The notes: a model not told the origin generated them from the sequence alone. Shown: positions 13,781 through 28,712, numbered from the stretch's first letter. The stretch: DNA of 64,000 bases from Thermoanaerobaculia bacterium (GCA_017883235.1 JADGNY010000007.1:17546-81545), one strand, 5' to 3'. Program-made: numbers and translations.

Positions 13781-15616
13781 CTACGAGCCCCAGTTCTCCA
13801 ACCAGTACTGCAAAATCACCAGCGCCCAGAGCGGCTTGGCGTTGTTCGCCTGGCCGCTTCGATGTGCCGACAGCAGCTCACCGACGTGGCGCTCGTCGAG
13901 AAGCCCCTGCGCGCGCAGCCGCTCCGGCGCGAGGAGACGATCGACTTCGGCGCGCAATCCTTCGTTGATCCAATTGGCGATGGGGACGCTCAGTCCCCGC
14001 TTGCGGCGATAGATCACGCTCTTCGGCAGCCAGCGTTCCGACGCTTTCTTCAGAACCCACTTCGTCTCGAAACGGCGGATGCGCAGGTCGAGCGGCAGCG
14101 ACAGCGCGAAACGGGTCACATCGCGGTCGAGGAACGGCGCCCGCGCCTCGACCGACGAGAGCATCGTGGCCCGGTCGACTTTCACAAGCAGGTTGTCGCG
14201 GAGATAGCTCCGGTAATCGAGCAGCATCGCCCCGGTCAGCGGATCGCCGTTCGAGGCGCCGGGCAGATCGGGCATGTCGTTTCCGAGCTTGTAGACCGCC
14301 GGCGACAGCCCGGTCCCGAACCACGCCAGATGCCGCTCGATCCACGGCTTCTCGGCGTCGGAGACGAATCGTTTCAGCAGAAACTCGAGCGTCACCTTCT
14401 TCGTCGATGACGGCACGCGCTGCACGGCCCGCCGCAACGCCGCGCGCACGAACGATGGCAAGGCGTCGTACATCGGCGCGACCTTGTGACCGATGTAGGT
14501 CGGATAGCCGCCGAACAACTCGTCCGCCCCCTCGCCGCTGAGGATGACCTTGACGCGCTGCCGCGCCGCCCGCGCCAGGAGAAAGGTCGGCAGAATGGCC
14601 GGATCGGCCAGCGGCTCGGCCACCCCTCGCACGACGCACTGCAGCGCCTCCAGCAAGGTTTCGGCATCCGTCCGCACCGGCACATACCGTGTCCTGATCC
14701 GCTTCGCCAGCTCCTCGGCGACGGGACTCTCGTCATACGACTGCTCGGCGAACGCGGCGGAGTAGGTGTGAACCTTGTCGACGCCGATGAACTTCGCCGC
14801 CAGCGTGGCCAGGATCGAGGAATCGAGTCCGCCGCTGGTGAAGACGCCGACCGGCACATCGGCCATGACCTGCTTTTCGACCGCGCGCTCGACGAGGCGT
14901 TGCGTTTCGGCGACGGCATCGCGCGCGTCAATGCGCTCGATGCGGAAAGAGCCGGCATCCCAATAGCGGACGGTCTCCTCGGAGCCATTACGGAAACGGA
15001 TGAACGTCCCCGCCTCCACGCGGCGGACGTCGCGGAACGGCGTGCGCGGCTCGGGGATGTACCCGAGGCGAAGGTACTCGCCGATGGCGATGGGATCGAG
15101 CTCGCGGCCGATGTCGGGATGCCGCAGAAGGCATTGCAGCTCCGAGGCGAAGATCACCTCTCCCCGAGGCTTCGCGTAAAACAGAGGCTTCTCGCCGGCC
15201 CGGTCGCGGGCCAGGATCAGTTGCTGCGTCCGCGCATCCCAGATGGCCAGACCGAACATCCCATCGAGCTCGGGGATGGCGGCCACGCCGCGCTCCAGGT
15301 ACAGAGGCAGGATCGTTTCGACGTCCGACTTCGAGCGATACGGATAGTCCGGATAGCGGGCCCGGATCTCCGTGGCGTTGTAGATCTCGCCGTTGCACTC
15401 CAGCCACACCTCTGATCCCGGCGCCGCGAACGGCTGGTCGGCGCGCTCATGAAGATCGATGATGCGCAGCCGCTCGGTCCCGATCACCGCCTCGGGACTC
15501 GTGAATTCCGCGTGCCCGTCCGGTCCGCGGTGCCGCAACGCCTCGCCCATGAATCCGAGGACCTCCGGATACCGCAGCGCCGCCCCCTCCGCGACCATTC
15601 CATAGATGCCACACAT
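13781..15616 (-). CDS. asnB: Asparagine synthetase (glutamine-hydrolysing)
   Basis: MCGIYG N-terminal nucleophile and SGGLDSS PP-loop. 611 aa. Confidence 0.9.
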   Translation of the reverse strand: MCGIYGMVAEGAALRYPEVLGFMGEALRHRGPDGHAEFTSPEAVIGTERLRIIDLHERADQPFAAPGSEVWLECNGEIYNATEIRARYPDYPYRSKSDVETILPLYLERGVAAIPELDGMFGLAIWDARTQQLILARDRAGEKPLFYAKPRGEVIFASELQCLLRHPDIGRELDPIAIGEYLRLGYIPEPRTPFRDVRRVEAGTFIRFRNGSEETVRYWDAGSFRIERIDARDAVAETQRLVERAVEKQVMADVPVGVFTSGGLDSSILATLAAKFIGVDKVHTYSAAFAEQSYDESPVAEELAKRIRTRYVPVRTDAETLLEALQCVVRGVAEPLADPAILPTFLLARAARQRVKVILSGEGADELFGGYPTYIGHKVAPMYDALPSFVRAALRRAVQRVPSSTKKVTLEFLLKRFVSDAEKPWIERHLAWFGTGLSPAVYKLGNDMPDLPGASNGDPLTGAMLLDYRSYLRDNLLVKVDRATMLSSVEARAPFLDRDVTRFALSLPLDLRIRRFETKWVLKKASERWLPKSVIYRRKRGLSVPIANWINEGLRAEVDRLLAPERLRAQGLLDERHVGELLSAHRSGQANNAKPLWALVILQYWLENWGS

Positions 15617-15698
15617 CGAGGCGACTATAACCGGAAAGATTCAAGGGGCATTCGAGGGAGAGCGCAGATGGAGTGTCAGGGAGGACCAATCGAAACAC

Positions 15699-15888
15699 TG
15701 TCATCCTGAGCCGCCGGAGCCGCGTAATCGCGAAAGCGATTGCGCGGCGCAGGACGGTCGAAGGACCCCCAAGTTGTATCCCGGTTGGGCGGCGGAATAA
15801 TCGACATCCACCGCCCCGTCCGGGTTTCAGGCTGGGGGTCCTTCGGCGCGCTCTGCCCCTCCGGGGCTGCCGCCGCCTCAGGATGACA
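15699..15888. repeat. MITE-like element, family 1, copy B
   Basis: Same termini and core as copy A. Has an internal CCGCGTAATCGC-GAAA-GCGATTGCGCGG hairpin. Confidence 0.8.
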
Positions 15889-15924
15889 GTGCTTTTGTTG
15901 TACGGCTGCCCTGTCTGTGCTTTG

Positions 15925-16578
15925 TCACACCACCCCTCGGTACAAATAGGCGATGCCGAAGGTCAGCGGGCGAACATCGATCGACGTGAACCGCGCCGCT
16001 CCCCGCATCATCGCCACGAACTCCTCACCGCAGGGAAACCGCGCTGCCGACGATTCGAGATACTCGTACGCGCCGCGCTCGCCGGTGACGGCACCGCCGA
16101 GGCGCGGGAGAAAATGGCGGCGGTAGGAGTCGTAGAGGGCGGAAGCGAGGTGGCCGGACGGCTGGCCGAATTCCAGCACGATCACCCGTCCGCCGGGGCG
16201 GACCACGCGCGTCATCTCCGCGATCGCTTTGAAAGGATCGCCGACGTTGCGGATGCCGAATGAGATGCTGGCGATGTCGAAAACAGCGTCGCCGAACGGC
16301 AATGCGGTAACGTCGGCAACGTCGAAGGTGATCTCGCGCGACTTCTGCCGCGCCAGCGCGATCATCTCCGGCGTGAAATCGGTCCCGACCACACGCCCGC
16401 TGCCGACGGCCTTCTTGAATGCGATCGCCAGATCGCCCGTACCGGTCGCACAGTCGAGAACCGCATCGCCCTCCTTCGCGCCGGCCCATCGCACCGCCCT
16501 GCGCCGCCAGAGGTGATGAACGCCCGCGGACATGACGGTGTTGGCGCGGTCGTAGCGTCCGGCGATGGAGCCGAACAT
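15925..16578 (-). CDS. ubiE: Demethylmenaquinone/ubiquinone C-methyltransferase
   Basis: MFGSIAGRYDRAN..., VLDCATGTGDLA (motif I), and PGGRVIVLEF. The conservative start is 16578. The track ORF extends upstream through a family 3 repeat. Confidence 0.85.
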   Translation of the reverse strand: MFGSIAGRYDRANTVMSAGVHHLWRRRAVRWAGAKEGDAVLDCATGTGDLAIAFKKAVGSGRVVGTDFTPEMIALARQKSREITFDVADVTALPFGDAVFDIASISFGIRNVGDPFKAIAEMTRVVRPGGRVIVLEFGQPSGHLASALYDSYRRHFLPRLGGAVTGERGAYEYLESSAARFPCGEEFVAMMRGAARFTSIDVRPLTFGIAYLYRGVV

Positions 16579-16609
16579 GGATTGGATGCGGGTGGGGTCG
16601 GGTCCTGTG

Positions 16610-16827
16610 TACTGCGCGGCTGGCGCGCTGGCGCGCGCCGGCCGCGCGTTGTCTGCGCTCCGCGCGTTGTCTGCGCGTTGCGCGTTGTCGGTTGGTTCTC
16701 GGTCGTCAGTCATTCGCTCTCGAACGTTACCACCCGGCAACGAGGCCACACCAACGCGCGGAGCGCAGACAACGCGCAAGGCGCAGACAACGCGGCGAAG
16801 CCGCAGACAACGCGCGAAGCGCAGTTA
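16610..16827. repeat. Family 3 symmetric element, copy 1
   Basis: TACTGCGCGGCTGG... with 3x GCGTTGTC(T/G)G on the left arm and 3x CGCAGACAACGC on the right arm, ending ...GCGCAGTTA. It fills the divergent ubiE/menF intergenic region. Confidence 0.8.
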
Positions 16828-16837
16828 CAATCCAGCC

Positions 16838-17884
16838 ATGTCTCACGACTTCGCCTTCATCCAGACCGCGCCCGGGCGGGTCTTCGTCGGATGGGGGCCG
16901 TTCGAGCAACTACCGTTCAGGCGGCCGGAGCGGCCGGCATTCTTCATCGCCGACTTTTTTCTCGATGATCCGCATCCGTGGCGGCATCCGGCGGCGTGGG
17001 AGGAGATGGCGTTCGAGGAGCTGGCCTCGCGCTTCGACGATTACGGCGCGCCGCGCGTGGCGTGGGACCCTCCGTCGCTCCCCGACTTCACGGCGCTCTT
17101 CGATTCCGCGCACGCGGCCATGATCCGCGGCGAGTTTCAGAAAATCGTTCCGGTGATCTTCGAAACGGGCCGCTTCGTCGAGCGCGGCGAATGGTGGCGC
17201 TGGTTCTTCACGCGATTGAGCCAGTTGCCGCCCGGCATGCGCGCCTACGGCTATTCGTACCAGAACCACGGGATAATCGGAGCGACCCCCGAGCTGCTGT
17301 TCGAAGCCTACGCGCGCGGCTACCGGACCATGGCTTTGGCGGGGACGCGTCCCGTCGCCCGCGCGGAAGAGCTGACGCGCAATCCGAAAGAGCTCCGCGA
17401 ACATCGCTTCGTCGTCGACGACATCGTGCGCCGTCTGGCGCCGTTCGGGAACATCGAGATCGGTCCGCTCGGAACGTTGCGCCTGCCCAAGATCGCGCAC
17501 CTCATCACGCCGATCTTCTTCAGCGAGAGCGGCGGCTCGGAGCGGATGTCGTTCTCCGAGATGGTTCGCCGCCTCCACCCCACCGCCGCCCTCGGCGTCT
17601 CCCCGCGCAGCGAGGCCGGCGAGCGCTGGCTGCGCGAGGCCGACCGCGGCGTAAAGCGCCGCACCTTCGGCGCGCCGTTCGGACTGGAGCGCGAAGACCG
17701 CTCCGCGCTGGCCCTGGTGGCCATCCGCAATCTGGAGTGGAGCGGCGAGCGCGTACGCGTCGGTTCCGGCGCCGGGATGCTGATGGAAAGCCGCGTGGAG
17801 CTCGAGTGGAAAGAGCTGCGCGAGAAACGCGGGCAGGTGAAGGCGCTATTCGGCGTAGACGCACACGTCGAAGCATTCGCATGA
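16838..17884 (+). CDS. menF: Isochorismate synthase
   Basis: Start at MSHDFAFIQ (16838). Has IIGATPELLF, ALAGTRP and LHPTAALGV motifs. The track ORF's N-terminal extension lies in the repeat. Confidence 0.85.
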   Translation: MSHDFAFIQTAPGRVFVGWGPFEQLPFRRPERPAFFIADFFLDDPHPWRHPAAWEEMAFEELASRFDDYGAPRVAWDPPSLPDFTALFDSAHAAMIRGEFQKIVPVIFETGRFVERGEWWRWFFTRLSQLPPGMRAYGYSYQNHGIIGATPELLFEAYARGYRTMALAGTRPVARAEELTRNPKELREHRFVVDDIVRRLAPFGNIEIGPLGTLRLPKIAHLITPIFFSESGGSERMSFSEMVRRLHPTAALGVSPRSEAGERWLREADRGVKRRTFGAPFGLEREDRSALALVAIRNLEWSGERVRVGSGAGMLMESRVELEWKELREKRGQVKALFGVDAHVEAFA

Positions 17885-19335
17885 CCAACATCGCCGAAGC
17901 GCGGCGCGTCATCGAGCAGGCCTGCCGACTCGGCGCCGCCGACTTCTGCGTCTGCGCCGGCTCGCGCAACGCGCCGCTTCTTGCCGTCCTGGGAGCATCG
18001 GATCTTCGCATCTTCTCCTTCGTCGACGAACGCTCCGCCGCCTTCTTCGCCCTCGGCCGCGCCAAGCTGACTGGCCGCCCAGTCGCTATCGTCACCACGT
18101 CCGGCACCGCCGTCGCCGAGCTCCTCCCCGCCGCCGTCGAAGCGCATTACTCAGGGACAAAGCTGATCTTCATCACCGCCGACCGCCCGGCGCGATACCG
18201 CGGCACCGGCGCTCCGCAAGCGATCGAGCAGGAAGAGATCTTCGGCGTGTACGGGCGGGGGGCGGTTTTTCACATCAATGTTGCGTTTGATGAGCCGCTG
18301 ATCGACGAGGAGGTTGCCGCGTTGCTGGGTTGCAAGGTTGCTGCGTTGGAGACCGAGCAACCCAGGAACCAAGCAACCAGGCAACCCATCCCCTTCCCGC
18401 GCCCACTCGTGATCCTCAGCGGCCTCGCCCCCACCCACCACGCCCGCGTCCGCGCCTTCGCGCTCGCGCTGAATGCAACGGTGTACGCCGAGCCGCTTTC
18501 CGGTTTGCGCGAAGATCCGGCGCTCGCACATCTCCTCATCACCGCGGGAGAGCGGATGATCGGGCTGGGCAACTTCGATGGGGTGATCCGCATCGGCAAC
18601 GTGCCGTCGCTGCGCTTCTGGCGCGATCTCGATGAGTCGCGCCGCGACCTGCCGCTGGTCAGTTTCAGCGATCTGCCGTTCACCGGTTGCAGCCGCGGAG
18701 AGGTTCATCCGATCGAGTCGCTGCCGGACGATGTGACGCCGCGCGATCGGGATGAGAGCTTCTTCGCCATCGACCGTTCTCGCGCCTCTGCCATCGCTGA
18801 CATTCTCGATGAAGAGCCTCAATCCGAGTTGGCGATGGTCCGCTCGCTGTCGCGCACGATCCCCGCCAACGCCCGCGTCTACCTCGGCAATTCGCTTCCG
18901 ATCCGCGAATGGGATCTCGCCGCCACGCGCGAATGGCGTGGCTTTGCCATCGATGCAAATCGAGGCGCAAACGGCATCGACGGACAGCTCTCGACATTCT
19001 TCGGCCAGTGCCATCCCTCGCGCCCGAACGTCTGCGTCGTCGGCGATCTCACTACTATCTATGACAGCAACGCCCCCTGGATCGTCCCGCAGCTCGATCC
19101 CGGCATCGACTTCCGCATCGTCATCATCAACAACGGCGGCGGACGGATCTTCAGCCGCGTCCCCTCGCTCCGCACACTCGATCCGTCCATGCGCGAGCGG
19201 ATGATCGAGAACAGTCACGCGCTACGCTTCGATCACTGGGCCGCGATGTGGAGCATCGAAGAGCGCGTCACGGAGCTGCGCCCCGACGCCGACTCCACAC
19301 GCCGCGCCTGGGAACGCTACGACGCCCTATGGTGA
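17881..19335 (+). CDS. menD: SEPHCHC synthase (ThDP enzyme)
   Basis: ATG at 17881 overlaps the menF stop. Has CAGSRNAPL...DERSAAFFALG...TSGTAVAELLPA and GDLT...NNGGG ThDP motifs. Confidence 0.9.
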   Translation: MTNIAEARRVIEQACRLGAADFCVCAGSRNAPLLAVLGASDLRIFSFVDERSAAFFALGRAKLTGRPVAIVTTSGTAVAELLPAAVEAHYSGTKLIFITADRPARYRGTGAPQAIEQEEIFGVYGRGAVFHINVAFDEPLIDEEVAALLGCKVAALETEQPRNQATRQPIPFPRPLVILSGLAPTHHARVRAFALALNATVYAEPLSGLREDPALAHLLITAGERMIGLGNFDGVIRIGNVPSLRFWRDLDESRRDLPLVSFSDLPFTGCSRGEVHPIESLPDDVTPRDRDESFFAIDRSRASAIADILDEEPQSELAMVRSLSRTIPANARVYLGNSLPIREWDLAATREWRGFAIDANRGANGIDGQLSTFFGQCHPSRPNVCVVGDLTTIYDSNAPWIVPQLDPGIDFRIVIINNGGGRIFSRVPSLRTLDPSMRERMIENSHALRFDHWAAMWSIEERVTELRPDADSTRRAWERYDALW

Positions 19336-19943
19336 TCACCTGCCTCCACGGCTTCCTCGGCAACCCCCACGACTGGGACTTCCTCCGCGACGCCGGCTTC
19401 TCCATCGAGACCCCTCCCCTCGACACCATCCCCCTACACGGCGACACCCTCCTCGGCTACTCCCTCGGCGGCCGCCTCGCGCTGCACGCACTCCTGGCCG
19501 GCGCGCAGTACAAACGCGCAATCTTCGTCTCCACCGGCCTCGGCGTCGAAGGCGACGAAGGGCGCGCCGCGCGCCGCGCTGCCGATGAGGCATGGGCGCG
19601 GCGTTTCGAGACCGAGGACTTTGATGCGGTGATGGCCGCCTGGAACGCGCAGCCGGTGCTTGCTGGGCCCGCGCTTACTCGCACACGCGATGACTACGAC
19701 TCGCGCGCTCTCCGCGAGTGGTCGTCCGGTGCTTTACCACCGGTTGCCTCACGCCTGCACGAGCTGACGATTCCAACGCTCTGGATCGCCGGTGCGCGGG
19801 ATGCAAAGTACGCCGCCGAGGCGAAGCGGGCTGTTTCGCTGGTTCGGGGCGCGAACCTGGCGACGATCGAGGATGCAGGGCATCGCGTTCCCTGGGAGCA
19901 GCCAGCCGCATTCATGGAAAGGCTTCAACCACAGAGATACTGA
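19329..19943 (+). CDS. menH: Alpha/beta hydrolase, probable SHCHC synthase
   Basis: ATG at 19329 overlaps the menD stop. Has a GYSLGG nucleophile elbow. Assignment rests on operon context with menF and menD. Confidence 0.7.
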   Translation: MVITCLHGFLGNPHDWDFLRDAGFSIETPPLDTIPLHGDTLLGYSLGGRLALHALLAGAQYKRAIFVSTGLGVEGDEGRAARRAADEAWARRFETEDFDAVMAAWNAQPVLAGPALTRTRDDYDSRALREWSSGALPPVASRLHELTIPTLWIAGARDAKYAAEAKRAVSLVRGANLATIEDAGHRVPWEQPAAFMERLQPQRY

Positions 19944-19950
19944 GGACGAG

Positions 19951-20036
19951 CCCCCTGGGACCGCGGGCGTCTCGACCGCGGGTCTTGGCAGCATCCTGCT
20001 CAACCGCGCGGGCGAGACGCCCGCGGTCCCAGGGGG
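19951..20036. terminator. 24-bp-arm hairpin between convergent menH and the GH88/105 gene
   Basis: CCCCCTGGGACCGCGGGCGTCTCG ... CGAGACGCCCGCGGTCCCAGGGGG. Placed between two stop codons (19943 and 20044). Confidence 0.55.
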
Positions 20037-20043
20037 GGTGCGG

Positions 20044-21330
20044 TTAATTCTGCTTTCCCAGCTCCTCGTCAGAGAACTTCATCACCTCTGACGCTGCCAG
20101 GAGCCACCCGCCGGCACCATAGTTGACGTTGATCACGTCGTCGGACGCGATCGTCGGCCGGCTGCAATCGGGCCCGGTACCGGGCGGCTGGATGCCGGTG
20201 ACAACGCCGTCGGCGTCGATGCGCTGCATGAGCACGCCGAAGCCCTTCATGACCACGGGCAGATACGCATCGCGGTCGAGCAATCCTTCGTTGATCCCGC
20301 GCGCGAGAAAGAACGTCATCATGCCGGTGGCCGATGTCTCCGCGATGGGGCAGTCGAGAGGGTGGGAGAGATCGGAGCCCCAGCCGCCGCCAGGCGTCTG
20401 CCTCTCTTTCAATGACGCCGCCATCAGCACCAGCATCTGGCGGATCTCAGGCGGGCTGACCACACTCGGATACTGCGTGCCGGAGTACGGACGATCGAGG
20501 TAATGAGCCGCGCGCATCAGCGCGATGGCCGACCAGCCGTTTCCGCGCCCCCAGAAAAGATCGTTCCTGCCGATCCACTCCGGCTGATGCTGAAAGAGAT
20601 CGTGATTCGGATCCCAAAGGAGAAACCCGTTGCGCGCGGCGGCAGTAGGAACGGCGACCTCCCGAGGATCCGACGATGCCGGACGATGATCGTAGACATA
20701 CGCCTCGATCCACTCGTACGCGAGGTTCCGCGCCAGCTCGTTCGACGGCAGCCCATCGACCGACGATCCGTTCATGGACAGCCAGGAAATGACCATGTAC
20801 ATGTCGTCCTGCCAGTAGCGGGTACCGTAGCCTCCCTCGATCCACCACGGGTCGCGCGGCACACCGGCAGCGGGTGTGGTGCGGATCGCGTGCTCGGCGA
20901 AACTCATCGGACCGGTCAGCGTTGCCAGCAACGCTTCACGCCTCGGATCACCCGGAGGGATCACGCGATAGAGATCGAGAGAAACTTGCGCGTACGCCGT
21001 GCCATCACCCCAGTAGAGATTGGTGATGTCGTCGTCGCTTCCCAGGATCACGGACGCCGCCCGGTCGATCAGCCGCGCTCCAGCCGGATTCGATTGATTC
21101 TCCAGCTCCTCGCCCATCAGCACGAGCCCGTCGAGAAACGGAACGTTCTCCCAGTGCCGCCGCGGCTCGAACGAATCGATCCGCACTCGATCGGCAATCC
21201 GGATGGCGGTGGAAGCGATCACCTTCCGGCTTAGCGGCGTGGGATGGAGAACGGCCCGCCGCCGGGCAAACGCGGGACATGCAGCGAGTACGACGAGAGC
21301 AAGGATCGCGAGAAAGATCTTCCGGGACAT
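20044..21330 (-). CDS. Glycoside hydrolase family 88/105-like (unsaturated glucuronyl/rhamnogalacturonyl hydrolase)
   Basis: Signal peptide MSRKIFLAILALVVLAACPAFA. Has the FWGRGNGWSAIAL motif characteristic of the family. Confidence 0.75.
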   Translation of the reverse strand: MSRKIFLAILALVVLAACPAFARRRAVLHPTPLSRKVIASTAIRIADRVRIDSFEPRRHWENVPFLDGLVLMGEELENQSNPAGARLIDRAASVILGSDDDITNLYWGDGTAYAQVSLDLYRVIPPGDPRREALLATLTGPMSFAEHAIRTTPAAGVPRDPWWIEGGYGTRYWQDDMYMVISWLSMNGSSVDGLPSNELARNLAYEWIEAYVYDHRPASSDPREVAVPTAAARNGFLLWDPNHDLFQHQPEWIGRNDLFWGRGNGWSAIALMRAAHYLDRPYSGTQYPSVVSPPEIRQMLVLMAASLKERQTPGGGWGSDLSHPLDCPIAETSATGMMTFFLARGINEGLLDRDAYLPVVMKGFGVLMQRIDADGVVTGIQPPGTGPDCSRPTIASDDVINVNYGAGGWLLAASEVMKFSDEELGKQN

Positions 21331-21439
21331 ACCAAGGCCCCGAACGCCTCACGCCGAGGAGTTATTCATGATGACGGTACCGCTCCGACGGTTTTATCTG
21401 CGTACATCTGCGTCATCTGCGGATCGGCTTACGGTCGTC

Positions 21440-22417
21440 TCACCACCCCAACACGTACGCAAACATTAACGGCGCCACGATCGACGCATCCGACTCGATC
21501 ACGTGGCTCGGCGTGTCGACGCCCAGCTTCCCCCATGTGATCTTCTCGTTCGGTACGGCGCCGGAGTACGAGCCGAAGCTCGTCGTGGAGTCGCTGATCT
21601 GGCAGAAGTAGCCCCAGAGGGGGACGTTGGTGCGCTGCAGATCCTGGTGCAGCATCGGGACGACGCAGATGGGGAAGTCGCCGGCGATGCCGCCGGCGAT
21701 CTGGAAGAAGCCGATGGTGGTCCCGTCCTGCGTGGTCTTCGTGTAGTAGTCGGCCAGCTCGATCATGTATTCGATGCCGGTGCGAACGGTGTGCACGTTC
21801 TTCACGTCGCCGGAGATGCAGTGGCCGGAGTACATGTTGCCGAGGGTCGAGTCCTCCCAGCCGGGGACGAACATGGGGAGATTCTTCTCGGCCGCGGCGA
21901 TCATCCACGAATCCTTCGGATCGATCTGGTAGAACTCGGCGATCGAGCCGTCGCGAAGGATCTCGTACATGAACTCGTGCGGGAAGAGGCGGCGCCCTTC
22001 CTTGTCCTTGGCCACCCAGTGACGCAGCACCGCCGATTCGATGCGGCGCATGGCCTCCCCCTCGGGGATGCAGGTATCCGTCACGCGGTTCATGTGCCGG
22101 TCGAGCAGCGCCTTCTCATCCTGCGCGGAGAGGTAGCGGTAACCCGGAACGCGCTCGTAGTGATCGTGCGCCACCAGGTTGAAGATGTCCTCCTCGAGGT
22201 TGGCGCCGGTGCAACAGATGGCGTGGACCTTCCCCTGCCGGATCATTTCGGCGAGCGAGATCCCCAGCTCCGCGGTCGACATCGCGCCGGCCATCGTGAC
22301 AAGCATCTTGTTCCCGCCGTCGAGGTGCTTGATGTAGTCGTCCGCCGCCGCGCGCAACGCCGCGGCGTTGAAGTGGCGATAGTGATGCTGAATGAAATCT
22401 CTGATCGGACTAGGCAT
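21440..22417 (-). CDS. Deoxyhypusine synthase-like protein (homospermidine-synthase family)
   Basis: 325 aa with MAGAMSTAELG...CCTGANLEEDIFNLV motifs. Confidence 0.85.
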   Translation of the reverse strand: MPSPIRDFIQHHYRHFNAAALRAAADDYIKHLDGGNKMLVTMAGAMSTAELGISLAEMIRQGKVHAICCTGANLEEDIFNLVAHDHYERVPGYRYLSAQDEKALLDRHMNRVTDTCIPEGEAMRRIESAVLRHWVAKDKEGRRLFPHEFMYEILRDGSIAEFYQIDPKDSWMIAAAEKNLPMFVPGWEDSTLGNMYSGHCISGDVKNVHTVRTGIEYMIELADYYTKTTQDGTTIGFFQIAGGIAGDFPICVVPMLHQDLQRTNVPLWGYFCQISDSTTSFGSYSGAVPNEKITWGKLGVDTPSHVIESDASIVAPLMFAYVLGW

Positions 22418-22425
22418 GGCCGATG

Positions 22426-22669
22426 ATACTGCGCGGCTGGCGCGCTTTGTCTGCCGCTCCGCGGCGTTGTCGGTTGTCTGCGCCGCGGGCGCGTGGACGA
22501 GAAGTCACATGTCGCGCGAGATGTTGCTGCGCCCGCGTTGCAGCGTTGCCTGGGCCAGTTGGCGGTTCGTCGTAGGGCTCTCGCGTCACATGAGCCTTTT
22601 GACCACGCGCCGGCGGCGCAGACAACTGACAACGCGGCGAAGCCGCAGACAACGCGCCGCGCGCAGTAT
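22426..22669. repeat. Family 3 symmetric element, copy 2
   Basis: ATACTGCGCGGCTGGCGCGC...TTGTC(T/G)G motifs ... CAGACAA motifs ...GCGCGCAGTAT. It fills the divergent intergenic region between the DHS-like gene and the M28 gene. Confidence 0.8.
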
Positions 22670-22679
22670 CATCCGCCGC

Positions 22680-25670
22680 ATGAAACGAGCCCTTCCCCTG
22701 CTGCTCCTCGTCTGTACCACCGTCTTTGCGGATGACGCCAAGCTGACGAAATCGATCGAGACCGACATCCGCACGCTGGCCGCGCCGAACATGGAGGGCC
22801 GCGGCCTCGGTACGAAGGGCATCGGCCTGGCGGCGAACTACATCGAGGGGCGGCTGCGCGCTCTCGGACTGCAACCGGCGTTCGGCAAGTCGTATCGACA
22901 GCCGTTTCCGGTCAAGATGGGCGTCTCGCTCGGCAGCGGCAACAAGCTGGAGGGAGTGGCGGACGGCGACTGGACGCCGCTCGGCTTCTCCAGCGCTGGC
23001 CCGTTCTCAGGACCGCTGGCCTTCGCCGGCTACGGCATTGACGCCACACCGATCGGATACAACGACTTCGACGGAATCGACGTGAAGGGAAAAGTCGTGC
23101 TGATGCTGCGGTACGAGCCGCAGGAGAAGGACGACAACTCGAAGTTCGACGGACGCAGGCCGAGCCGCTGGTCGGCGATGCGCTACAAGGTCCTGCAGGC
23201 CCGCGAGCGCGGCGCGGTGGCGGTGATCTTCACCACCGGCCCGATTCAGGACGAAGGGAAGGACAAGGTTCCGCCGCTCGTCAACGACGGGCCGGAGAGT
23301 CCGGCCGGCATCCCGGTGATCCAGGTGAAGACGTCGGTGGCCCAGCGCTGGCTGAAGGATGCCGGGATCGATCTGGCCCAGTTTCAGAAGGACGTGGATG
23401 CCGATCTCAAGCCGCGCTCGCGCGTGCTGGCGGCGAGCGTCAGCGGCGTGGCCGATGTGAAGCCGCAGTTCGATAACGGCGAGAACATCGCCGCCATCCT
23501 CCCGGGCCGCGGCTCGCTGGCGAACGAGGTCATCGTCCTCGGTGCACATTACGATCACCTCGGGTACGGCGGTGAGGGCTCGATGAAACCGAACGTGCAC
23601 GCCATCCACCCCGGCGCGGACGACAATGCCTCCGGCGACGCGGGGGTGATGAACGCCGCCGAGCTGCTGCGCGATTCGCTGACGGGTATCCCGGACCGCC
23701 GCACGATCCTCTTCGCGCTCTTCTCGGGCGAGGAGCGCGGCCTGGCCGGATCCGGCTATTTCGTCGCGCATTCGCCGGTGCCGATCTCCAGCATCAAGGC
23801 AATGGTGAATCTCGATATGGTCGGCGCCTTGCGTGAGGACAAGATCACCGCCTTCGGCACCGACTCGGCCCCGCAGTGGAAGGCGCTCGTCGACACGGCC
23901 GGCGCCGGATCGAACCTCAAGATCACCGAGACCGGCGACGGCTACGGCCCGTCCGATCAGACCAGTTTCTACGCGGCGAAGGTGCCGGTGCTGCACTTCT
24001 TCACCGGCGCCCACGAGCGTTACCACACGCCGGAAGACATCGCCGATGCGGTCAACTTCGCCGGCGAAGCGCGCATCGTGAGGCTGATCGCGAACGTGAT
24101 GACGCCGCTGGCCCGTGGCGCCGTGACCCCGGTCTATGCGCGCGCTTCGAGCGCGCCGGCGATGGAAGGCGACTCCCGCGGTTACGGCGCGTACCTCGGC
24201 TCGGTCCCTGACTACTCGGCGATGGATGCCACCACCGGCGGCGTTCTCCTGTCCGACGTGCGCCCTGGCTCACCGGCCGACAAGGCCGGTATCCGCGGCA
24301 AGGACCGGATCGTCTCGATCGGAGGCACGCGCATCGAGAACCTTTACGACATGTCCTACGCGCTGCAGGATCACAAGCCCGGCGATACCGTCGACATCAT
24401 CGTCGTCCGCGGCGGTGACCGCTTGACGCTGCGCGCGACGCTCACGACGCGCGGCGGCGGCGCTCCGATGGCACCTGTGCCGGTCGCTCCCACACCTTCC
24501 CCGCGCCCGCCGCCGGGTGGAAAACTGACACCTTCACCGGTCGTACCTACCCCCTCGCCCCGCCCACCGCGTGCAGGGTTGCAGCCCTCGCCGGTCGTTC
24601 CGCCGCCCTCGCCAAGACCGCCGGGTCCAGGACCGGTGAGCCCGCCGGCAGGCACGCCTACGCCCTCAAACGGTTTCACGATCGGCGCCGGCAAACCGTT
24701 CGAGAAGACGTACGACGGCGAGAAGCATCTGAAAGACATCCGCCAGCTCACCTTCGGCGGCGAGAACGCCGAGGCCTACTTCACTCCTGACGGAACGAAG
24801 ATCATCTACCAGGCCACCGTGCCCGGCGCCGGATGCGATCAGGAGTACACGATGGATCTGGCCACCGGCGCGACGAAGCTCGTCTCGAACGGCAAGGGGC
24901 GGACGACGTGCGGCTACTACCGCTATCCGCAGGGCGACCGCATCATCTATGCGACCACCGAGGGCGGCGGCGCCGATTGCCCGCCGAAGCCGGACATGTC
25001 CAAGGGATACGTCTGGCCCGTTTACTCGTCATTCGACATCGTCGAGGCCAACGTCGACGGCTCCAAGGCGAAGAAGATCACCACCGCTTCCGGATACGAC
25101 GCGGAGATGACGTGGTGTCACAAGGGCGGGAAGATGGTCTTCACGTCGATGCGCGACGGCGATCTCGAGCTCTACGAGATGGACGAGGCGAGCGGGAAGG
25201 TCAAGCGCCTGACCTACGCCCCCGGCTACGACGGCGGCGCCTTCTACAACGGCGACTGCACCGAGATCGTCTGGCGCGCGAACCATCCGGTGGGTCCGGC
25301 GCTCGATGAGTATCGCGGGCTGCTGGCGAAAGAGCTCGTCAAGCCGCTGCTCATGGAGCTGTTCCTGATGAATGCCGACGGCACGAACCAGCGCCAGATC
25401 ACCCACAACGGCGCCGCCAACTTCTGTCCCTACTTCATGAACGACGGGAAGCGAATCATCTTCGCCTCGAACGTCAACGCCCACGGCTTCGACTTCGACC
25501 TCTGGACGATTCAGAAGGACGGCCAGGGCCTGGAGCGCATCACCACCGCCCCCGGCTTCGACGGCTTCTGCGTCTTCAGCCCCGACGGCCAGTACCTGAT
25601 CTGGGCCTCCAGCCGCGCCAAGCCGGACAGCTACGAGATGAACCTGTTCATCGCGAAGTGGGTGGACTGA
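22680..25670 (+). CDS. Secreted M28 aminopeptidase - PDZ - Pro-rich linker - TolB/PD40-like beta-propeller fusion
   Basis: Start at MKRALPLLLLVCTTVFA (22680). Contains GAHYDHLGYG...GADDNASG (M28), a PDZ segment (GSPADKAGIRGKDRIVSIGG), 3x SPVVPxPSPRPP, then PD40-like repeats. Confidence 0.85.
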   Translation: MKRALPLLLLVCTTVFADDAKLTKSIETDIRTLAAPNMEGRGLGTKGIGLAANYIEGRLRALGLQPAFGKSYRQPFPVKMGVSLGSGNKLEGVADGDWTPLGFSSAGPFSGPLAFAGYGIDATPIGYNDFDGIDVKGKVVLMLRYEPQEKDDNSKFDGRRPSRWSAMRYKVLQARERGAVAVIFTTGPIQDEGKDKVPPLVNDGPESPAGIPVIQVKTSVAQRWLKDAGIDLAQFQKDVDADLKPRSRVLAASVSGVADVKPQFDNGENIAAILPGRGSLANEVIVLGAHYDHLGYGGEGSMKPNVHAIHPGADDNASGDAGVMNAAELLRDSLTGIPDRRTILFALFSGEERGLAGSGYFVAHSPVPISSIKAMVNLDMVGALREDKITAFGTDSAPQWKALVDTAGAGSNLKITETGDGYGPSDQTSFYAAKVPVLHFFTGAHERYHTPEDIADAVNFAGEARIVRLIANVMTPLARGAVTPVYARASSAPAMEGDSRGYGAYLGSVPDYSAMDATTGGVLLSDVRPGSPADKAGIRGKDRIVSIGGTRIENLYDMSYALQDHKPGDTVDIIVVRGGDRLTLRATLTTRGGGAPMAPVPVAPTPSPRPPPGGKLTPSPVVPTPSPRPPRAGLQPSPVVPPPSPRPPGPGPVSPPAGTPTPSNGFTIGAGKPFEKTYDGEKHLKDIRQLTFGGENAEAYFTPDGTKIIYQATVPGAGCDQEYTMDLATGATKLVSNGKGRTTCGYYRYPQGDRIIYATTEGGGADCPPKPDMSKGYVWPVYSSFDIVEANVDGSKAKKITTASGYDAEMTWCHKGGKMVFTSMRDGDLELYEMDEASGKVKRLTYAPGYDGGAFYNGDCTEIVWRANHPVGPALDEYRGLLAKELVKPLLMELFLMNADGTNQRQITHNGAANFCPYFMNDGKRIIFASNVNAHGFDFDLWTIQKDGQGLERITTAPGFDGFCVFSPDGQYLIWASSRAKPDSYEMNLFIAKWVD

Positions 25671-25765
25671 CTGCGCGGCGTTGCCGCGCGTTGTCGGTTG
25701 TCTGCGCTTCGCGCGTTGTCGAAGAGCGGCCTCTGAAACGCGGCCACGCAGACAACGCCCACGCC
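25669..25765. repeat. Family 3 element, short copy 3
   Basis: GACTGCGCGGCG...GCGTTGTCGGTTGTCTGCG...CGCAGACAACGC, starting at the stop codon of the M28 fusion gene. Confidence 0.65.
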
Positions 25766-25862
25766 AGCGCCGCATCACACCTCAATGCGTGGTACTGGCT
25801 TCTTCGAGACGGTCGACACGCGCCCGTAGGTTGGAAAACGCTTCTTCAAAGGTGCGCGAAGT

Positions 25863-26204
25863 CTACTGTTCGACAACGCGAAGCCGGCGATCGAGCTCGG
25901 CATGCGAGAACTTGATCATCGCCTGCGTGTCTGCGAATCCAAGCTCCATCCGCGCTTCGATGTTGGCGGTCCTGCGGTCCACCTTCTCGTCGAGGTTGGC
26001 AAGACCTTCCGCGAGCAGGTCGGACCTTCGACGCAAGTCTTCGGCGGTCACGTCGAAGTGGAGGCGTAGCTCCGCCGTTTTGTCATCGAACTTCTTGTCG
26101 AGCGCGTCGATGCGTCGATCGATCGCATCGAAGCGCTTCTCGAAGCCCTTCTCAATCCGCTCGGTGTTCGCTTCCAGCAGACGTTTCAGCTCGTCGTCCG
26201 TCAT
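25863..26204 (-). CDS. Hypothetical coiled-coil protein
   Basis: 113 aa with charged heptad-like sequence. No recognisable family. Confidence 0.45.
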   Translation of the reverse strand: MTDDELKRLLEANTERIEKGFEKRFDAIDRRIDALDKKFDDKTAELRLHFDVTAEDLRRRSDLLAEGLANLDEKVDRRTANIEARMELGFADTQAMIKFSHAELDRRLRVVEQ

Positions 26205-26225
26205 CGCGTGAGTGTACCTCGGCTC

Positions 26226-26702
26226 CTACTTCTTCGTCACCGTAATCGTCGCCGTTGAGCTCACCCGTGCTCCGTTGTCGTCGAGCCCCTCGACGCGGAC
26301 GTCACCGTAGATCCTGCTGAAGAGGTGGTCGTCGGTGACTTCCATGCGCGGAACGAAGTGGTAGTGAATCTCATGCTTGGCCTGGATCGAGGTGGCGAAG
26401 CCGAGGGACTTGATTTTGGCGGCGTCGAAGGACTCGGTCGCCACCGGGATACCGCCGCCGGCGTAAACGCTCGCCGTCACCCTGTCGATCGTGACCGGAT
26501 GGCCGCCGGTCTCCTTGACCACGGCGTCGAACGGGAAGTCGTACGTGCTTCCACTGACGTTGGCGGCCACGACCGCACTGGGCGTGATCGTGAGTTTGAT
26601 CTCGCCGCGGCCGGGCGTGGCGGTGCTCTTATTCGTCCCCGGCCGTTGCGAGGCGCAGGCGAGCGGAAGGCAGACGAGCGCGATGAGGGCCAGTCGTTTC
26701 AT
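26226..26702 (-). CDS. Hypothetical lipoprotein
   Basis: MKRLALIALVCLPLAC lipobox. 158 aa. Confidence 0.6.
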   Translation of the reverse strand: MKRLALIALVCLPLACASQRPGTNKSTATPGRGEIKLTITPSAVVAANVSGSTYDFPFDAVVKETGGHPVTIDRVTASVYAGGGIPVATESFDAAKIKSLGFATSIQAKHEIHYHFVPRMEVTDDHLFSRIYGDVRVEGLDDNGARVSSTATITVTKK

Positions 26703-26715
26703 GACGTGACTCCTG

Positions 26716-27234
26716 TTACTTCATGTCGCCCATGAGCGTGGTCACGCCGCAGGCGATGCGAGGACCGGCGTTGCCGGCAGGCTGCGAGGTCAGATCGTCC
26801 GGATTGCCGTGCAGGACGATGGCGTGGCCGACCACGCCGTTCGCGCCGGTATTGATCGTGATCGAGTGCGTCGTGAAGCGGGCGTGAACTTCGCCCTTGT
26901 CATCCGCGGTGACGTTGCCGAAGTCACCGGCGTGGTGAGACACCGCGTCCGGCGCGCCGTGGACCATGCCGCCGGGATTGAAGTGGCCGCCGGCATTCGC
27001 GGCGTCGTTGCCGCAGTCGCCCTTCTCGTGGACGTGGAAACCGTGGACGCCGGGGGGAACGCCGGTGAGATCGGCGACGACTTCGACGCCGTCATCGCCG
27101 GCACTCTGGAAGTGAACGACGCCTTTCGCGGTCGAGCCGCTGGTCGGGTCGAGCGTGGCCATCGCCATCGGTCCTTTGCTGTGGGCACATGCGGCGAAAA
27201 CGAGTGCGAACGGGATCACCAGAAGTTTTTTCAT
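26716..27234 (-). CDS. sodC: Cu/Zn superoxide dismutase
   Basis: Signal peptide, then HGFHVHEKGDCG and GGHFNP...HAGDFGN motifs. Confidence 0.9.
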   Translation of the reverse strand: MKKLLVIPFALVFAACAHSKGPMAMATLDPTSGSTAKGVVHFQSAGDDGVEVVADLTGVPPGVHGFHVHEKGDCGNDAANAGGHFNPGGMVHGAPDAVSHHAGDFGNVTADDKGEVHARFTTHSITINTGANGVVGHAIVLHGNPDDLTSQPAGNAGPRIACGVTTLMGDMK

Positions 27235-27278
27235 ATTGCCTCCTCTTGCAAGATCCAGACGATTCTATGACGGACCGG

Positions 27279-28712
27279 TCACTGCGACCATGCCGCGATC
27301 TTTTTTCCGAGCGATCCGAGCCACCCTTTGGCCACGTCCTGGTAGTACGTCGAAGCCGCTTTCTGCAAGGCGTCGGCCAGGGATGGGTAGGGGGAAATGA
27401 GCTGCGCGAGCTGTGCCACGGTGACCTTCTTCTGCCTGGCCAGGACGAGCGTTTCGATGAGGGTGGAGGCGTTGGCGCAGAGCGCGTGCGCGCCGAGGAT
27501 GCGGCCCCGCTTGTCGCAGACGAGCTTCACGAATCCCCCGGTCGTTCGATCGACCACGGCGCGGTCGACCTCGGCCATCTCCACGCTGTACGTGCGGATG
27601 CTCTCCGCGCCATGCGCCGCGATCGCTTCCGCTTCCGTCATCCCGATGTGCCCGACCTCGGGGTCGGTATAGAGCCCCCACGGAACGTTGTCGTAGCTCA
27701 CCGGAGAACGGCCGGGAAAAAGCATGTTGCGCACGAGCTTCACCGCCTCGTACGCGGCCACGTGCGTGAACTGCATGCCGCCGTGGACGTCGCCGCAGGC
27801 CCAGATCCGCGGCACCGAGGTCTGGAGATACTTGTCGACGGTGACGAAGCCGCGGTTCGTCTTCACCCCCGCCGCTTCGAGTCCGAGGTTCTCGGTGTTG
27901 GCCCGGCGGCCGCTGGCGACGAAGATCTCGTCGACGCGCACCTCCATCGTCTCGCCGATCTTGTTCTCGATACGGACGACTTTCTTCCCGTCCTCGGCAC
28001 GCACCGACTTCGCCGCCCAGCCGCTGCGGATCACGATCCCCTCCTCGGAGAGAATCGTGCGGATGCGGGCGATGACGTCGGCATCCTCTTTGTTGACGAT
28101 CTCGTCGAGCATTTCGACGACGACGACGACCTCGCTGCCGAAACGCCGGAAGAGCTGCGCGAACTCGATGCCGATGTAACCGCCGCCAAGAATCAAAAGC
28201 GATGCCGGGAAGGAATCCTGGTTCAGAAACGACACGTGGTCGAGAAAGCCGTTCTCCGCGAGCCCTTCGACCGGCGGGATGGCGGTCCGGGTGCCTGTGG
28301 CGATGACGATGTCTTTCGCGGCCAGCCGCCGGCCATCGACGTCGACCTCGCTACGCGACGCGAGCGTGGCCTTGCCGAAGATCACCTCGATGCCGAGGGC
28401 GCGGAACTTTTCCGGATCATCGTGATGCTCGATGGCGTGGCGCTGCGCGCGCATCGAATCCATCACCGACTTCGGCGTCACGCGCGCCGTCCGCGGCTCC
28501 AGGCCGTAGGCATCGGCATGCTGCATCTGGTGGACGAGACGCGCCGTGGCCACCAACGCCTTGGTCGGCACGCAGCCGGTCCAGAGACAGTCGCCGCCCA
28601 GCTTCTCGCGCTCGATCAGCGCAACCTTGCGGCCGAGGCGCGCGCAGCCGGAGGCGGTAACCAGTCCGGCCGTGCCGCCGCCGATGACCACGACGTCGAA
28701 TGATTCAGGCAT
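27279..28712 (-). CDS. FAD-dependent pyridine nucleotide-disulfide oxidoreductase (dihydrolipoamide dehydrogenase/mercuric-reductase-like)
   Basis: VVVIGGGTAG, the redox-active GGDCLWTGCVPTK motif, and a C-terminal dimerisation region. Confidence 0.85.
   Translation of the reverse strand: MPESFDVVVIGGGTAGLVTASGCARLGRKVALIEREKLGGDCLWTGCVPTKALVATARLVHQMQHADAYGLEPRTARVTPKSVMDSMRAQRHAIEHHDDPEKFRALGIEVIFGKATLASRSEVDVDGRRLAAKDIVIATGTRTAIPPVEGLAENGFLDHVSFLNQDSFPASLLILGGGYIGIEFAQLFRRFGSEVVVVVEMLDEIVNKEDADVIARIRTILSEEGIVIRSGWAAKSVRAEDGKKVVRIENKIGETMEVRVDEIFVASGRRANTENLGLEAAGVKTNRGFVTVDKYLQTSVPRIWACGDVHGGMQFTHVAAYEAVKLVRNMLFPGRSPVSYDNVPWGLYTDPEVGHIGMTEAEAIAAHGAESIRTYSVEMAEVDRAVVDRTTGGFVKLVCDKRGRILGAHALCANASTLIETLVLARQKKVTVAQLAQLISPYPSLADALQKAASTYYQDVAKGWLGSLGKKIAAWSQ

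Follow-up and report, generated by a model that had tools for sequence, protein, structure and literature searches.

A 64,000-nt stretch of DNA from an uncultured Thermoanaerobaculia bacterium (the window, meaning the whole stretch that was analysed) carries three copies of a symmetric element built of TTGTCTG-type motifs and here called family 3. What kind of element is it, and what accounts for its position beside gene starts and stops? An earlier note on this DNA had described the copies as a portable, two-faced promoter/5′-untranslated-region cassette or, alternatively, as a palindromic array of sites for one regulator. In this study, the elements were analysed in the window's genome (G000, an uncultured soil metagenome-assembled genome of 6.92 Mb, 246 contigs and 62.9% G+C) and compared among 19 genomes of this uncultured genus of Thermoanaerobaculia (Acidobacteriota) and 12 genomes of other genera. 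Results suggest that family 3 is probably the gene-less population of a palindromic repeat family, within a class of short-unit-armed hairpins that enclose PF05635 genes.

Element ends in the window were set by the CTGCG...CGCAG termini. The left arms were built of GCGTTGTC(T/G)G motifs and the right arms of their reverse complements, so that each copy consists of inverted arrays of 43–55 nt that are 86–89% complementary; copy 1 has three GCGTTGTC units in each arm. All 10 exact matches to GCGTTGTCKG in the window fell inside the three copies (0.71 expected), a number reached by none of 100 shuffles. A single long hairpin was obtained both for copy 1 folded as RNA (-145.9 kcal/mol, z = -9.9) and for copy 2 folded as DNA (-98.2 kcal/mol, z = -8.3). 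The termini, arm complementarity and motif count bear out the three array copies with inverted arms, at the places where they had first been noticed. An Rfam scan of positions 14000-28000 (E-value up to 1) gave no family for the hairpins, the sub-threshold hits being chance matches of the miRNA and SymR type.

Searching G000 with the core motif gave 604 matches in 239 clusters, with approximately 130 multi-motif copies and approximately 80 long palindromes. The polarity was single: in 80 clusters plus motifs were followed by minus motifs, and the reverse order was found in none. The arms, 45–100 nt in length, were made of units of 7 or 18 nt belonging to two module types, the heptamer GGTTGTC and an 18-nt module in which GTTGTCT is joined to a GC mini-hairpin (e.g. 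GCGC-TTC-GCGC or GCGGC-TTC-GCCGC). Spacers between neighbouring GTTGTC motifs contained a perfect stem of at least 4 bp in 183 of 311 cases, compared with 15 of 311 after shuffling; the stems differ (GCGGC, GCGC, GCGCC, GCCGC), yet the pairing is preserved. The outer end was CTGCG at 142 of 208 arm ends and the inner end was GCGCGTGGWC (GCGC-GCGGCGCGTGGWC), and identical termini and inner boundary were repeated at about 80 unlinked sites. Loops were 20–100 nt in length, each copy having its own sequence. Arm partners within an element were more alike than arms across elements (mean scores of 35.3 and 29.5), and the own partner ranked first in 7 of 36 cases.

Family 3 is one of several large heptamer families that occur side by side in G000. 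Exact tandem dimers were counted for AAACCAG (1059), AAGGCAG (1024), ACCCCCG (790), AACCGAC, which is family 3 (706), ACTCCCG (606), AAGGATG (302) and AACATTC (270). A second palindromic family (AACGTAGGTCGGACTCTC...GAGAGTCCGACCTACGTT) was observed nested in or adjoining family-3 loops at G000:C89:4065-4217 and C118:18929-19132, and next to C174:22351.

Three PF05635 matches were found in G000. The best of them (C85:20367-20774, 136 aa, Pfam E-value 3e-32) is enclosed by family-3 arms in the region G000:C85:20115-20985, the left arm being duplicated. PF05635 is the four-helix-bundle family that includes Avd and S23p, the protein of 23S rRNA intervening sequences; the nearest solved relative was 2GSC (Xanthomonas XCC0516, a pentameric S23p), with an E-value of 1.6e-21. 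The presence of this gene in the loop of one family-3 copy places family 3 in the class of short-unit-armed hairpins resembling intervening sequences. Three features of the class are present, namely inverted short-unit arrays forming a long stem, one polarity and, within this genome, a PF05635 gene enclosed by arms with the family-3 unit. A second G000 PF05635 gene, on contig C160, lies between arrays of GCAGARG, a unit that is likewise abundant (1024 dimers in G000). Avd partners with a reverse transcriptase; three RVT_1 genes were found in G000, none of them on a contig carrying a PF05635 gene.

Across the 19 genus genomes, inverted arrays were found around 28 of 29 PF05635 homologues. When the nine arm labels were mapped on the maximum-likelihood protein tree, they required 8 changes, which is the minimum; shuffled labels averaged 18.5 changes and none of 200 shuffles was as low. 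The dispersed copies followed the same pattern. The heptamer dimer GTTGTCGGTTGTC gave from 59 to 495 matches in all eight genomes with a gene of the family-3 clade, and the six genomes with 0 or 1 match were all without such a gene. The units whose gene G000 lacks (GATCTCT, GGCYGTC, GCTCTGA, and CACAAAG) were absent from G000.

Both states of a site, with and without the gene, were observed in related species. At the C85 site, where both flanks are orthologous, the gene-bearing element of about 850 nt in G000 corresponds to a gene-less family-3 hairpin of about 85 nt in G007 and about 160 nt in G018. At a second site, on G000:C110, the clade gene is present in G005 and G007, where both flanks match, and in G018, where the right flank only does; in G000, positions C110:9806-11282 hold a gene-less hairpin, a gene for a 428-aa NRAMP-like transporter and a solo arm unit, with no PF05635 gene. 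The C110 site resembles an exchange of cargo at one place. One copy in G013 adjoins, on one flank only, the gene that borders a gene-less element at C168 in G000.

The strict 28-mer of the 18-nt module was found in 6 of the 19 genus genomes and in none of the 12 genomes of other genera, and the heptamer dimer in 14 of the 19. When the joined flanks of 36 G000 elements were searched in G007 and G018, nearly all orthologous sites were occupied, with inserts of other lengths (61–270 nt). The C14:5481-5641 element, filled in G000, had empty counterparts in both G007 and G018. Two sites held collapsed remnants, CTGCGCGATAGCGCAG in G018 and, in G007, CTGCGCCGCGCGCGCCGT, an 18-nt unit between convergent stops; at one site G007 holds a different heptamer family. 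Judged from these sequence comparisons, family 3 is old and mostly vertically inherited, with internal units that turn over fast and with occasional gain or loss.

These observations suggest how the gene and the gene-less copies could be connected. Judging by the match between units and protein clades, a PF05635 protein would recognise the repeat unit of its own family, either as DNA or as RNA. By analogy to RAYT/REPIN systems (a repetitive extragenic palindrome [REP]-associated tyrosine transposase and the REP doublets that it serves), it would help to maintain or spread the hairpins according to a logic of one protein for one repeat family. Where transcribed, the hairpins would act as double-stranded RNA sites of processing or stabilisation, as in rRNA intervening sequences. 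The full proposal, that PF05635 proteins are sequence-specific partners of their own tandem-unit hairpin families and that one single-copy gene for each family maintains or spreads hundreds of gene-less hairpins flush against stops and promoters, is put forward tentatively, as a possibility rather than as the expected outcome. If true, it would describe a protein-repeat partnership like RAYT/REPIN without a known nuclease or transposase, and it would account both for the surplus of heptamer repeats in bacterial genomes, which has lacked an explanation, and for what the S23p/Avd-like family does outside retroelements. Neither dispersed heptamer arrays nor small 23S rRNA intervening-sequence proteins, widespread as both are, have so far been explained; should the protein recognise its own repeat, gene ends would be shaped by a protein-repeat system of a new kind. 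The genus offers a compact test bed: it contains several repeat families, to each of which a protein clade corresponds, and shows both site states in sister species.

Several observations weigh against a partnership of this kind. The fit of arm unit to PF05635 clade is expected in part from co-inheritance of the gene with its flanks; the unlinked copies, which track the gene across genomes, carry weight independent of that co-inheritance. In five genomes with 18–99 family-3 matches, a clade gene was not detected; fragmentation or incompleteness applies to four of them, which leaves G004, at 99% completeness, as the true exception. AAACCAG, the top heptamer in G000, also has no detected PF05635 gene. 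No gene remnants were found by blastn or tblastn in the gene-less loops, and the best full-length match in a search for parent copies within G000 was approximately 78%, with no near-identical pair, so that recent copying is not evident. On the transcribed strand, arm mismatches did not lean towards G-U (9 G-U and 21 A-C), which gives no support for a selected RNA-level stem. We know of no catalytic activity in PF05635, and no enzyme was found linked to family-3 elements. Other large family-3 hairpins carry unrelated cargo, namely DUF2442 (C9:31862-32244), DUF433 with DUF5615 (C44:15809-16564), and PIN_12 with a 145-aa open reading frame (ORF) of unknown function (C10:29561-31017). The enclosed small genes (DUF2442, DUF433/DUF5615 and PIN_12) are toxin-antitoxin-like. 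A search of the available literature found nothing on repeats in Thermoanaerobaculia and nothing tying PF05635 genes to dispersed gene-less hairpins.

Table 1. Family-3 copies and adjoining gene features in the window (positions counted from its first nucleotide)
Feature	Position	Strand	Remarks
Family-3 copy 1	16612..16824	.	Left arm ~16612-16698, centre ~16699-16751, right arm ~16752-16824
Family-3 copy 2	22429..22666	.	Between -10 hexamers of two divergent genes; 55-nt arms, 89% complementary
Family-3 copy 3, short	25671..25774	.	0 nt past M28 fusion TGA (25668-25670)
ubiE/menG methyltransferase coding sequence	15925..16713	-	ATG at 16713 within copy 1 centre
menF start	16826..16840	+	-10-like TACAAT 16826-16831, 6 nt, ATG 16838-16840; leaderless-type promoter immediately outside copy 1
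DHS-like gene start	22415..22428	-	ATG 22417-22415; -10-like TATCAT 22428-22423; hexamer abuts copy 2 left end
M28/PDZ/TolB-propeller fusion gene start	22667..22682	+	-10-like TATCAT 22667-22672, 7 nt, ATG at 22680

Family-3 elements touch stop codons, adjoin promoters and even add tails to enzymes. The window copies and the gene features beside them are listed in Table 1. For the whole of G000, 300-nt flanks were classed by a codon log-odds model trained on long ORFs, and 139 arm ends were classified: 74 faced the 3′ end of a gene, 47 the 5′ end of a gene and 18 non-coding DNA. Among the 74 ends facing stops, the gap from stop codon to CTGC was 0 nt in 42, 1 nt in 10, 2 nt in 5 and 3 nt in 4, that is, 0–3 nt in 61. 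The triplet immediately outside CTGC was TAA in 42 cases, TAG in 10 and TGA in 9. Confident long ORFs of G000 end in TGA (n = 684), TAG (n = 366) and TAA (n = 211), and TAA is therefore over-represented beside the elements. TAA also preceded 7 of the 47 start-facing and 3 of the 18 non-coding-facing ends, and thus looks partly intrinsic to the element or its target. The logo outside CTGC at 142 ends was T (83), A (72), A/G (69/44). At the M28 fusion, the stop is at one and the same codon in all species compared, and arms of family 3 or of other families begin 0–3 nt after it in nearly all species; this conservation across the genus indicates that the element there abuts a native stop. The right end of copy 3 lies about 8 nt short of the ancestral stop of the convergent gene. 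That gene (window 25775-26204, minus strand) encodes a coiled-coil protein, is convergent with the M28 gene and has an in-frame TAG at 25863-25865, approximately 27 codons before the stop of its relatives (25782-25784).

At gene starts, both right-hand ATG codons in the window were confirmed to lie 12 nt after the terminal GCAGT (13 nt after GCAG). The fixed distance between element and start did not extend to the genome, where the gaps at 5′-facing ends were 1–29 nt with a mode of 13 nt (6–7 of 47). In all six 13-nt cases in G000 the order was element end, TAnnnT, 6–7 nt and ATG. The same signature is common in this genome: TAnnnT beginning 12–18 nt before the first ATG was found in about 18% of 1547 crudely called genes, compared with about 0.5% at each of the other positions. 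For Shine-Dalgarno-like 4-mers, the genome-wide peak in G000 is at -9 to -12.

Comparison of the orthologous intergenic regions showed the -10 hexamers to be independent of the element. TACAAT followed by 6–10 nt precedes menF in 7 of 9 species compared, including G010 and G006, whose site holds an unrelated repeat. In every species compared, the M28 gene is preceded by TATCAT, TACCAT or TACGAT plus 7 nt and the DHS-like gene by TATCAT or TAGAAT plus 7–9 nt. The DHS/M28 site is empty in G010 (85 nt) and G004 (99 nt), and the -10 hexamers are still there; they are also kept in species whose sites hold unrelated palindromes. Since the hexamers occur at empty sites, the element appears to have settled beside pre-existing leaderless promoters rather than to have brought them, and the mode of 12–13 nt follows from the geometry of these promoters (-10 hexamer plus 6–7 nt). 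In G010, G008, G001, G003, G014 and G016, other palindromic or tandem families, unrelated to family 3 (CACAAAG arrays, tandems of a 60-nt hairpin, and CGCGGAGACGCGGAG palindromes), occupy the same two sites. These two gaps are general landing places for hairpin repeats.

With these data, the idea of a promoter/5′-untranslated-region cassette or operator array, kept because it supplies promoter parts or regulator sites to both neighbours, has become improbable. The terminal unit does place a -35-like CAGACA 15–17 nt from the element end (at menF, CAGACA at 16804, 16 nt, TACAAT), six ends show the promoter-like order described above, and 11 of 53 classifiable palindromes lie between divergent genes; a side effect of the element-borne CAGACA on neighbouring promoters is possible on sequence grounds. 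However, 19 of the 53 lie between convergent genes (the other 23 being co-oriented), more ends face stops than starts, the start gaps vary, the leaderless signature is genome-wide, and the -10 boxes are native and present at empty sites; promoter-like matches numbered one in 9.6 kb, equal to the shuffle mean of 1.2. Thus, the cassette proposed in the earlier note was not sustained, whereas the alternative that it named, sites for a single protein arranged in an array, agrees with the sequence-based link to a cognate PF05635 protein; of its observations, the copies, arms and right-hand distances held, and the ubiE start and the genome-wide fixed distance did not. The abundance of 3′-facing ends raises another explanation, that family 3 represents 3′-end hairpins selected by the host as terminators or mRNA stabilisers and growing in place by slippage, with PF05635 and other small genes in the loops because loops are neutral. 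The starts 0–3 nt after stop codons, the enrichment of convergent pairs, the variation in unit number between orthologous copies and the diverse loop cargo would all suit it. A terminator scan, however, detected neither a T-run after the stems nor a terminator-like call at the outer ends; the lack of G-U bias, the specific termini and inner boundary recurring at about 80 unlinked sites, and the arming of 28 of 29 genus PF05635 genes with units that track protein clades also argue against it, and we regard it as unlikely.

Two explanations in terms of known transposases were considered. The elements might be REPs or REPINs moved in trans by a RAYT, an IS200-like Y1 transposase acting on single-stranded hairpins. 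They are extragenic inverted doublets, enriched between convergent genes and free of target duplication; G000 has nine Y1_Tnp matches, and GCGAAGC-type sequences, which are stable DNA mini-hairpins, occur in family-3 arms. REP termini are also known to give flanking ORFs their stop codons (PMC3733652). Against this, no family-3 motif comes within 900 nt of any of the nine Y1 genes, the best RAYT-like gene (on C237) has on its flanks REPs of its own that are unrelated to family 3, neither a GTAG nor a CGTC tag is present, the flank logo being T-A-A/G, and family-3 elements are far longer and more modular than REPs of 20–40 nt; such an origin has a low probability. A link to RAYT was rejected, as none of the nine Y1_Tnp genes is flanked by family 3. 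The RAYT-like gene at G000:C237:15640-16077 (L001:1408-1845, minus strand) encodes 145 aa and lies within its own inverted REP-like sequences (CCAGCCCCGCGC...GCGCGGGGCTGG). A classical miniature inverted-repeat transposable element derived from an insertion sequence with a DDE transposase, e.g. a TA-targeting one of the IS630 type, would explain the terminal inverted repeats, the TA-rich flanks (TAA, or the TA of -10 boxes) and the patchy occurrence within the genus. The copies are not near-identical, most sites are orthologous across three species, and the cargo between the arms is never a transposase (no search was made for full-length insertion sequences with CTGCG termini); this origin is the least likely of those considered. 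The TA-duplicating form was rejected, because at the single clean pair of filled and empty sites, that of C14:5481-5641, neither a duplicated TA nor another target duplication was found.

Copy 1 had been thought to fill the whole gap between ubiE and menF, with ubiE starting at 16578. Analysis of the reading frame gave a different arrangement. The ubiE ORF is open up to the ATG at 16713, without an in-frame start between 16713 and 16578, which makes the methionine at 16578 internal and the left arm of copy 1 coding sequence; a conserved YTGPDPTRI is encoded upstream of this methionine, and TIGR01934 matches from residue 43 of 262 onwards. The first approximately 33 codons of ubiE correspond to the left arm read in reverse complement (MTDDREPTDNAQRADNARSADNARPARASAPAAQ...). 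In G000, G007, G005, G013 and G015 this arm, although made of differing numbers of units, keeps the frame from the central ATG to the conserved core, and a TDNA motif recurs in the UbiE tails that it encodes in these five species. At the centre, the element contains a conserved GAACGTTACCAC in three of the five species and the variant AGAACCTTACCAC in G007 and G013. Family-3 elements can mislead the annotation of start codons, as at ubiE, and they break assemblies at repeats. Rickettsia palindromic elements are in-frame palindromic inserts in genes, and the left arm of copy 1 is similar to them in being read in frame as a low-complexity N-terminal tail of UbiE in five species. Family 3 differs in that a single in-frame case is shown here, the family is mainly extragenic and its sequence is unrelated. 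A further repeat, about 195 nt long (window 15696-15891), lies in the interval from the ubiE stop to the upstream gene; G000 and G007, the latter a complete genome, both hold many copies of it at 91–96% identity, and it gave no Rfam match at an E-value up to 1.

Comparison with known systems revealed three further parallels. REPs, bacterial interspersed mosaic elements and REPINs associated with RAYT genes (PMC3116915, PMC3733652) are similar to family 3 in forming extragenic hairpins in inverted doublets, in long vertical persistence, in having one single-copy gene flanked by its own repeat, and in having termini usable as stops and some copies inside ORFs. They differ in that family 3 flanks a four-helix-bundle gene and not a Y1 transposase gene, lacks the GTAG/CGTC tag and has much longer, modular arms; moreover, the RAYT-like gene of G000 has REPs other than family 3. 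Intergenic heptamer arrays have been described in Xanthomonas (GGGAATC) and Nostoc (GGGGAYT), including 70–75 convergent inverted pairs (Rehm et al. 2015, PMC4692102). These are dispersed tandem units of 7 nt, mostly intergenic and often in inverted pairs, lying for the most part 0–50 bp from a neighbouring ORF and in some cases overlapping its stop codon, with locations conserved between related species; there the repeats are treated as G-quadruplex-forming sequences. The family-3 unit is different and does not form G-quadruplexes, and family 3 has additional GC mini-hairpins and defined outer and inner ends.

The third parallel is with the ORF-bearing intervening sequences in the 23S rRNA genes of Coxiella burnetii, Leptospira and Xanthomonas (Warrier et al. 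2016, PMC4990558). In Coxiella, the intervening sequence has a 28-bp stem with tandem heptamers in variable number, an S23p ORF, and cleavage by RNase III in the stem (PMC4990558). Unlike these, family 3 is situated between, and partly inside, protein-coding genes rather than in helix 25 or 45 of 23S rRNA; over 100 of its copies have no ORF, and its arms are composite, combining a heptamer with a GC mini-hairpin in an 18-nt period. The two have in common a long terminal stem of inverted repeats with tandem heptamers that vary in number between strains, a PF05635 (S23p) ORF in the loop and no transposase.

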